Assembly (NCBI RefSeq): GCF_016903815.1
Contig: NZ_CP069973.1
DNA length: 64,000 bases
Source of the DNA: Escherichia coli
GTDB lineage: Bacteria > Pseudomonadota > Gammaproteobacteria > Enterobacterales > Enterobacteriaceae
Reading direction: 5' to 3' (one strand)
In this document: piece by piece, positions 47,339-48,043 of the stretch
How the letters are laid out: the number at the start of each line of letters is the position of its first letter
How positions within the stretch are numbered: position 1 is the first letter of the stretch
The notes under the pieces: model-generated
Database searches by the model: none
Seen by the model: only the letters and a program-made list of their open reading frames with translations
Told to the model about the DNA's origin: nothing
Position numbers and translations under genes: made by a program

Positions 47339-47402
47339 AGATAATCCTGCTTGAACAATAAAAGCGTTATGGTAACGCCTGCGATTAACCCGGACCAGCT
47401 AT

Positions 47403-47852
47403 TCATTGCGACGGCGCGGGAAGCCAGGCTTCGGTAAATTCAAACCAGCCGCGCGGTGTCAGTCGCACACCGTTCACGCCGGGAGGGGCACTAATGCGAT
47501 AGTGATAGTTGAACAGCGGCGTCAGCGTCGCATCTGTCATTAACTGGCTAAAAACCGCTTTCAGGGCATTAAATCGGTTTTCTTCATCAGGCATTATTTG
47601 CACGGCATCCAGTGTCGATTGTAGATGTGCGTATGCTGGAGCGTCGAAAACATGTGGCCACAGCGGATCGCAGCGCAGCCATTGCTCCAGAGTATATTCC
47701 GGTGCTTCGCCAATTAATCTGTCGCCCATCATGAGGTCTGCGTGTGGGCACTCACCAGCAACTGCTAGCGGCCCAGGGACGCTACTGGCAGATGTATCAA
47801 CTGCAACTTGCGGGCGAAGAGCTGGCAGCCAGCGTGCGTGAAGAGGAATCAT
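47403..47852 (-). pseudogene. ybaE: ybaE remnant (probable C-terminal ~149 codons of a ~566-codon solute-binding-protein-like gene)
   Basis: Only about 0.7 kb separates queC from glnK here, against roughly 8 kb in K-12 (ybaE, cof, ybaO, mdlA, mdlB) as I recall. The 149-aa ORF sits where the ybaE 3' end should be; identity inferred from synteny, not verified by alignment. Confidence 0.5.
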
Positions 47853-47884
47853 TGAGCGCCTGAATAGCGCAATATTTCATCGTT

Positions 47885-47925
47885 GGTGCAAAAATGTAAC
47901 GCACTGTGCACTGTCATAGTGCGTT
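47885..47925 (+). promoter_or_regulatory. probable NtrC (enhancer) binding sites upstream of glnK
   Basis: ttggtgca...gcactgtgcactgtcatagtgcg contains TGCAC/GTGCA half-site dyads resembling the NtrC consensus TGCACC-N5-GGTGCA. Confidence 0.5.
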
Positions 47926-47975
47926 TTCATTTTCAATCTTCTTAACTTCCTGCTCTCTTTCTCGTTTTTCATTTC

Positions 47976-47991
47976 TGGCACACCGCTTGCA
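47976..47991 (+). promoter_or_regulatory. sigma-54 (-24/-12) promoter of glnK-amtB
   Basis: TGGCAC-accgc-TTGCA, an exact match to the sigma-54 consensus, about 55 bp upstream of the glnK ATG. Confidence 0.8.
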
Positions 47992-48043
47992 ATACCTTCT
48001 TCGTGTAGCAGAACCATTACCGAATTCTGACCGGAGGGGATCT

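Follow-up and report, generated by a model that had tools for sequence, protein, structure and literature searches.

A 6,345-bp deletion between queC and glnK marks part of the Escherichia coli ST405 clone

The interval between queC and glnK in the Escherichia coli contig NZ_CP069973.1 was very probably left by one chromosomal deletion of 6,345 bp that arose inside ST405 (phylogroup D, O102:H6, fimH27) and was then inherited. The interval lies at positions 47339-48043 of the window, by which we mean the whole 64-kb stretch of DNA that was analysed. The deletion is not private to this genome and marks part of the ST405 clone.

The queC-glnK interval and its remnants

The ORF list gave the local gene order in the window as ppiD-ybaV-fadM-queC followed by glnK-amtB-tesB-ybaY, and the sequence and the ORF list placed queC and glnK only 705 bp apart compared to 7,050 bp in K-12 MG1655. 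A first-pass annotation of the window had put these distances at about 0.7 kb and about 8 kb with five genes, and both the contraction and the number of genes were confirmed. In K-12 MG1655, the interval contains ybaE on the minus strand and then cof, decR (also named ybaO or cyuR), mdlA and mdlB on the plus strand. The K-12 locus, queC-ybaE-cof-decR(cyuR)-mdlA-mdlB-glnK-amtB (b0444-b0451), has flanks in the same order and orientation as those in the window. BLAST of window positions 46000-49000 against the K-12 queC-glnK region (locus L002), the alignment that the annotation had proposed for mapping the breakpoint, returned a left block (window 46000-47746, L002 1222-2956, 97.7% identity) and a right block (window 47746-49000, L002 9301-10555, 98.7% identity). 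Both blocks stopped at window base 47746, with 6,345 bp missing between them that correspond approximately to NC_000913.3 465,956-472,300. The sole gap in the left-flank alignment was a 12-nt length difference in the ybaV-fadM intergenic region (~46088-46192), which is 105 nt in the window and 93 nt in K-12.

Since K-12 is a distant relative, the mapping was redone against the closest intact genome among 5,426 complete E. coli assemblies, that of the ST405 strain 50579417 (NZ_CP033884.1; locus L003). This strain has the same flank order and orientation as the window but its interval is intact from queC through amtB. The left flank (44000-47746) was 100% identical over 3,747 nt, the right flank (47746-51000) had one mismatch (99.97% over 3,255 nt), and the gap was again 6,345 bp. 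In a three-way alignment with K-12 and strain 50579417, the junction fell at 47746, where a single G could come from the left or the right side, a microhomology of 1 nt. Written side by side, the two sides of the junction read ATGAGGTCTGCGTGTG and GGCACTCACCAGCA, and the 30-mer that spans them is ATGAGGTCTGCGTGTGGGCACTCACCAGCA (47731-47760). Compared to the intact locus, the window lacks the 6,345 bp between ybaE codon 453 and mdlB codon 555. Among the five K-12 genes, cof, cyuR, mdlA and mdlB are gone wholly or almost wholly, and ybaE retains its last fifth only. The annotation had proposed a deletion of about 7 kb covering the 5' part of ybaE, cof, ybaO, mdlA and mdlB. The genes were correctly named, including the loss of a HAD phosphatase, a regulator and a putative ABC exporter pair (cof, ybaO/decR and mdlA are absent, together with almost the whole of mdlB), but the exact size is 6,345 bp and 38 codons of mdlB survive.

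On the left of the junction, queC (46643..47338, minus) is an intact 231-aa ORF, and in strain 7/2, which has the identical locus, its annotation is QueC WP_000817227.1. The gene is followed by the native ybaE-queC intergenic region (47339..47402, minus), whose alignment to K-12 and to the intact ST405 genome is collinear, and a consensus scan identified a terminator-like hairpin at 47380-47362 on the minus strand. The 408 nt 5' of queC are identical to the intact state. Judged from this sequence, queC would retain any promoter within these 408 nt and would have lost read-through from ybaE. The ybaE remnant is a pseudogene (47403..47746, minus) consisting of 344 of 1,701 nt, that is 113 codons and the stop codon, and aligns to L002 2613-2956 in K-12 and to L003 3752-4095 in the intact ST405 relative. 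Its 113 residues are identical to YbaE residues 454-566 of that relative. In the identical locus of strain 7/2, PGAP annotates this remnant as an incomplete SgrR family transcriptional regulator with its N-terminus missing. On the other side of the junction lies a remnant of mdlB (47747..47863, plus), also a pseudogene, with 117-118 of 1,782 nt (38 codons and the stop codon). Its translation is the MdlB C-terminus of the intact ST405 relative, and PGAP lists it in the strain 7/2 locus as an incomplete hypothetical protein with its N-terminus missing. This second remnant had been overlooked in the first-pass annotation.

A 149-codon ORF runs across the junction on the minus strand (47403..47852) and begins with 36 codons antisense to the mdlB remnant, followed by the 113 YbaE codons. 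It had been read as the 3' end of ybaE. That assignment holds for the 113 codons, which encode YbaE 454-566 and not an unrelated protein, and fails for the 36 codons antisense to mdlB. A Pfam scan of the 149-aa ORF identified no domain, and an NCBIfam scan returned only a sub-threshold match to the 51 C-terminal positions of SgrR (22 bits versus a cut-off of 476). We also considered that the junction had made a new promoter, and rejected this as the consensus scan found none: there was no sigma-70-like site upstream of the ORF on the minus strand, and the only such site (47647-47618, minus strand) lies in native ybaE sequence. The 149-codon ORF is probably an accidental fusion rather than a gene.

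The mdlB-glnK intergenic region (47864..48043, plus; 180 nt) differs from K-12 by one substitution, at 47937. Pattern matching located NtrC-like half-palindromes at 47887-47903 and 47907-47923 and a sigma-54 promoter of the form TGGCAC-N5-TTGCA, TGGCACACCGCTTGCA, at 47976-47991. From established knowledge of the K-12 glnK promoter, we take 47887-47923 and 47976-47991 to be the NtrC and sigma-54 sites. The substitution at 47937 falls outside these motifs, and their sequence and spacing are as in K-12, in agreement with the earlier claim that the glnK control elements are intact. The breakpoint had been placed within about 100 bp upstream of the NtrC sites; it is instead 141 nt upstream of the first of them, inside mdlB and not in the intergenic region. 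Native DNA is retained for 117 nt beyond the 180-nt intergenic region, giving a total of 297 nt 5' of glnK that match the intact state. The downstream genes glnK (48044-48382, plus) and amtB (48412-49698, plus) are intact, and both carry the same annotation in the identical locus of strain 7/2. NtrC/sigma-54 control of glnK-amtB is predicted to be unchanged.

Elsewhere, the window has segments that are absent from K-12. Between malZ and acpH, a 1.66-kb segment (212-1871) contains a 485-aa Lys/Glu/Asn-rich ORF (397-1854, plus) with no NCBIfam match. A 700-bp insertion relative to K-12 (8192-8891) lies between secF and yajD and encodes a 169-aa IS200-type Y1 transposase (8284-8793; NCBIfam transpos_IS200, E 3e-43). 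The yajI gene is split by a 1,750-bp IS200/IS605-family element (10954-12703) at K-12 432718/432722, within the CDS at 432312-432851; the element carries a 92-aa TnpA fragment (11158-11436, minus) and a 385-aa TnpB RNA-guided endonuclease (11452-12609, plus; NCBIfam guided_TnpB, E 4e-116). Between pgpA and yajO, a 2-kb segment (17083-19064) contains a 523-aa ORF (17263-18834, minus) with pentapeptide repeats and a weak similarity, far below threshold, to PipB2 and PipB, both type III effectors; this ORF could, we presume, encode an EspX-like effector homologue.

Junction structure and formation of the deletion

In the mechanism that we propose, an illegitimate joining with a 1-nt overlap would have fused ybaE codon 454 (minus) to mdlB (plus) at a point 118 nt short of its end. 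This would have removed the first 453 codons of ybaE together with its promoter, cof, the intervening intergenic DNA and the whole cyuR(decR/ybaO)-mdlA-mdlB operon save the last 38 codons of mdlB. Both remnants are dead pseudogenes. The junction had been singled out in the annotation for a search for microhomology or IS scars, and this search revealed the one shared G and no IS scar. In the alignments with K-12 and strain 50579417, there were no inserted bases, IS ends, inverted-repeat ends or target duplications at the junction, ybaE and mdlB sequence ran straight up to it, and the breakpoints had no direct repeat of more than 1 nt in common. Within +/-60 nt of them, the longest direct repeat was 8 nt, lying ~45 nt from the left breakpoint and ~30 nt from the right one.

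Formation of the deletion by a mobile element, through an IS adjacent deletion or IS-IS recombination, or by RecA acting between direct repeats was weighed against this structure. A few other E. coli genomes (H59, H60, H192 and H193) do have IS200/IS605-family insertions in this interval; in these, a tnpA insertion of ~0.7 kb lies within the ybaE-mdlB interval and the match is split in two, spanning ~7,050 bp. ST405 genomes also carry IS1 and IS26, with one IS1 close upstream of the cyuPA locus; in strain 7/2 (NZ_CP023820.1, locus L006 3374-4071) this IS1 is directly upstream of yhaH and ~3 kb from cyuPA. Against a mobile element stand the lack of IS sequence, inverted-repeat ends and target duplications at the junction, and the interval of the intact ST405 relative, which is without an IS. 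A RecA or repeat-mediated event is opposed by the single nucleotide common to both sides and by the position of the 8-nt repeat off the breakpoints. We consider the mobile-element and RecA routes very improbable. The junction points to homology-independent end joining or another form of illegitimate recombination, neither IS-mediated nor RecA-dependent. The enzymatic route of the joining is not readable from a 1-nt overlap.

A 9-nt inverted repeat was observed near the breakpoints, with TGCCAGTAG spanning the left breakpoint (L003 4094-4102) and CTACTGGCA at L003 10476-10484. The latter copy is 36-44 nt right of the right breakpoint and is retained in the window at 47783-47791. The chance of a 9-mer inverted match is 5.6% anywhere in random window pairs and ~0.5% when it has to span the left breakpoint. 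This repeat was rejected as a cause and taken as a coincidence; its pairing would yield an inversion and not a deletion.

Occurrence among complete genomes and within ST405

The same junction was present in 45 of the 5,426 complete E. coli genomes, each covering the full 1,851-nt junction query; identity was 100% in 44 of them and 99.9% in the remaining one. In nearly all other genomes, this query matched at two separate places. A short interval could also stem from faulty sequencing or assembly, for instance from a contig that was collapsed or wrongly joined. Such an artefact is practically ruled out by the variety of laboratories, countries and sequencing platforms behind the 45 carriers, among them isolates from Sweden, China, Norway, Japan, Taiwan, Myanmar and Pakistan and from the USA AR Bank. 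The region is also without repeats that could cause a collapse.

Translocation or inversion could in principle have moved cof, cyuR and mdlAB elsewhere in the chromosome without their loss. The deleted segment had no BLAST match elsewhere in the 64-kb window. The K-12 version of the segment was matched in 5,379 of the 5,426 genomes and had no match in 47, a number equal to the 45 carriers plus two genomes without the flank query; the ST405 version likewise had no match in 47. The absence of the lost DNA from the carrier genomes was established by such counting of genomes: the ST405 version of the segment was at least 99% identical in exactly 62 genomes and the flanks were at least 99% identical in 107 ST405-like genomes, and the difference equals the 45 carriers. 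By these counts, and in the window itself, cof, ybaO and mdlAB are not found at another location, which had been named in the annotation as the finding that would speak for a rearrangement. The chance that these genes were moved instead of lost is negligible. As the counts leave no carrier with a copy of the lost DNA, the sequence comparison identifies the interval as a deletion, the derived state, and not as a rearrangement. At least 80% of the segment was covered in 5,372 of the 5,426 genomes. As only 54 genomes were without this coverage, the locus is not a hotspot.

The deletion is already implicit in RefSeq, where PGAP flags both remnants as partial pseudogenes. A literature search that included the 2026 ST405 comparative-genomics paper (PMC13098264) found no mention of it, and it is apparently undescribed in the literature searched. 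The carrier WCHEC96200 is reported as ST405 and phylogroup D (PMC5762679), and the intact strain 50579417 is likewise ST405 (PMC6046176). The window itself contains none of the seven MLST loci, and its ST405 typing comes from other carriers. To place the deletion within the lineage, assembly accessions were cross-referenced to Table S4 of a study of 1,778 ST405 genomes (PMC13098264), which gave typing for 15 genomes. All nine carriers found in the table were ST405, O102:H6 and fimH27. They were assigned to BAPS 6 (7/2, AR_0015 and elppa5), BAPS 3 (KY 1497, PEC1020 and PEC1021) and BAPS 2 (NMBU-W10C18, WCHEC96200 and PEC1013). The six intact genomes were 50579417 and Z1002 (BAPS 3, fimH29), STO_Bone2 (BAPS 6, fimH29), E597 (BAPS 5, fimH27), and DA33137 and AR_0067 (BAPS 6, fimH27) (PMC13098264). 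We rejected fimH27 as a perfect correlate of the deletion, as E597, DA33137 and AR_0067 are fimH27 yet intact. The distribution of the deletion does not track the published BAPS clusters. The typing of these nine carriers and six intact genomes places the origin of the deletion within ST405, in a fimH27 background and independently of BAPS assignment.

The identity of the junction among carriers argues for one event. In the 16-kb right flank, all 26 perfect matches were carriers, and intact ST405 genomes were 1-3 SNPs off, too few differences to establish monophyly. Some doubt remains about a single clonal origin. Since carriers occur in BAPS 2, 3 and 6 and intact genomes also occur in BAPS 3 and 6, including fimH27 genomes, vertical inheritance alone may not explain the distribution. 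The allele may have spread among ST405 sub-lineages by homologous recombination in the flanks, or the intact allele may have been restored in the same way. Consistent with this are the scatter of carriers over three BAPS clusters and of intact genomes over BAPS 3, 5 and 6 with three of them fimH27, the failure of the carriers to form one contiguous block in Table S4, which is apparently in tree order, and the authors' statement that recombination influences BAPS clusters (PMC13098264). On the other hand, BAPS 6 may be a paraphyletic bin, the order of Table S4 may not be tree order, and the cross-reference is limited to 15 genomes. Over 16 kb of flank, carriers and intact ST405 genomes are separated by 0-3 SNPs, which gives no signal of an imported tract. 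Recombinational spread or restoration is, on balance, rather unlikely, and one deletion that was then passed on by descent within ST405 is preferred.

Predicted consequences and related deletions

Of the lost genes, cyuR-mdlAB are reported to form one operon, and CyuR (DecR/YbaO) represses this operon and, with cysteine, activates cyuPA, the genes for a cysteine importer and a desulfidase (PMC11408624). In K-12, a cyuR deletion raised the sensitivity to several antibiotics, and the putative function of MdlA is that of an efflux pump (PMC11408624). In the carrier strain 7/2, both cyuP and cyuA are full-length and annotated as intact. By analogy with K-12, carriers would be unable to induce their retained cyuPA with cysteine. 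As the activator of cyuPA is lost, cysteine-derived H2S and anaerobic cysteine fermentation should fall, though cyuPA may have some expression independent of CyuR. MdlAB export and Cof HMP-PP phosphatase activity are predicted to be missing from carriers as well.

The deletion may have been selected, or may have hitch-hiked, in expanding carbapenemase-carrying ST405, with the allele perhaps moved by recombination, instead of being a neutral scar. If it was selected, loss of CyuR would silence cysteine-induced cyuPA and, in the gut, could shift both the output of H2S and the fermentation of cysteine, while loss of MdlAB would change efflux; the two losses together could affect colonisation or tolerance to antibiotics. 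All three NDM-5 'subgroup B' isolates of the ST405 study (PMC13098264) are among the carriers, which belong to three BAPS clusters, and some sister genomes are intact. We regard selection or hitch-hiking as improbable. The deletion is an ordinary, lineage-specific event and is structurally routine for E. coli. By PCR or as a k-mer, its junction offers a simple way to recognise a sub-lineage of ST405, a high-risk clone. The lost genes are present in ~99% of complete E. coli genomes, and the carriers are natural knock-outs in a clinical background. CyuR has recently been tied to cysteine- and H2S-dependent antibiotic tolerance, and the retention of cyuPA without its activator gives a clear, testable phenotypic prediction.

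Homology-independent and microhomology-associated deletions arise in E. coli by illegitimate recombination and alternative end joining. The ST405 junction resembles homology-independent deletions of E. coli in being clean, with an overlap of 0-1 nt, no mobile element and a kilobase scale, and the likeness is one of resemblance only. Another deletion at this locus was found in the pig isolate 20Ec-P-124 (NZ_AP017610.1 539118-545275; locus L019 2157-4455), where ybaE without its N-terminus abuts tesB. This deletion also begins inside ybaE, and cof, cyuR and mdlAB are likewise gone. It differs in that 1,503 nt of ybaE are kept, the join is at tesB, and the loss is larger and extends to glnK and amtB. 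It is an independent event, unconnected to ST405 and limited to this one pig isolate. Further counterparts of the carriers, and the basis of the predicted phenotype, are the Δ-cyuR, Δ-mdlA and Δ-mdlB mutants of K-12 (Rodionova et al. 2024, PMC11408624), in which the same genes are lost. The phenotype predicted from these mutants is a lack of cysteine-dependent cyuPA activation together with a changed sensitivity to several antibiotics (PMC11408624). The K-12/BW25113 mutants are single-gene knock-outs, whereas the loss in ST405 is natural, is joint with that of cof and ybaE, occurs in a multidrug-resistant clinical clone and is known from sequence.
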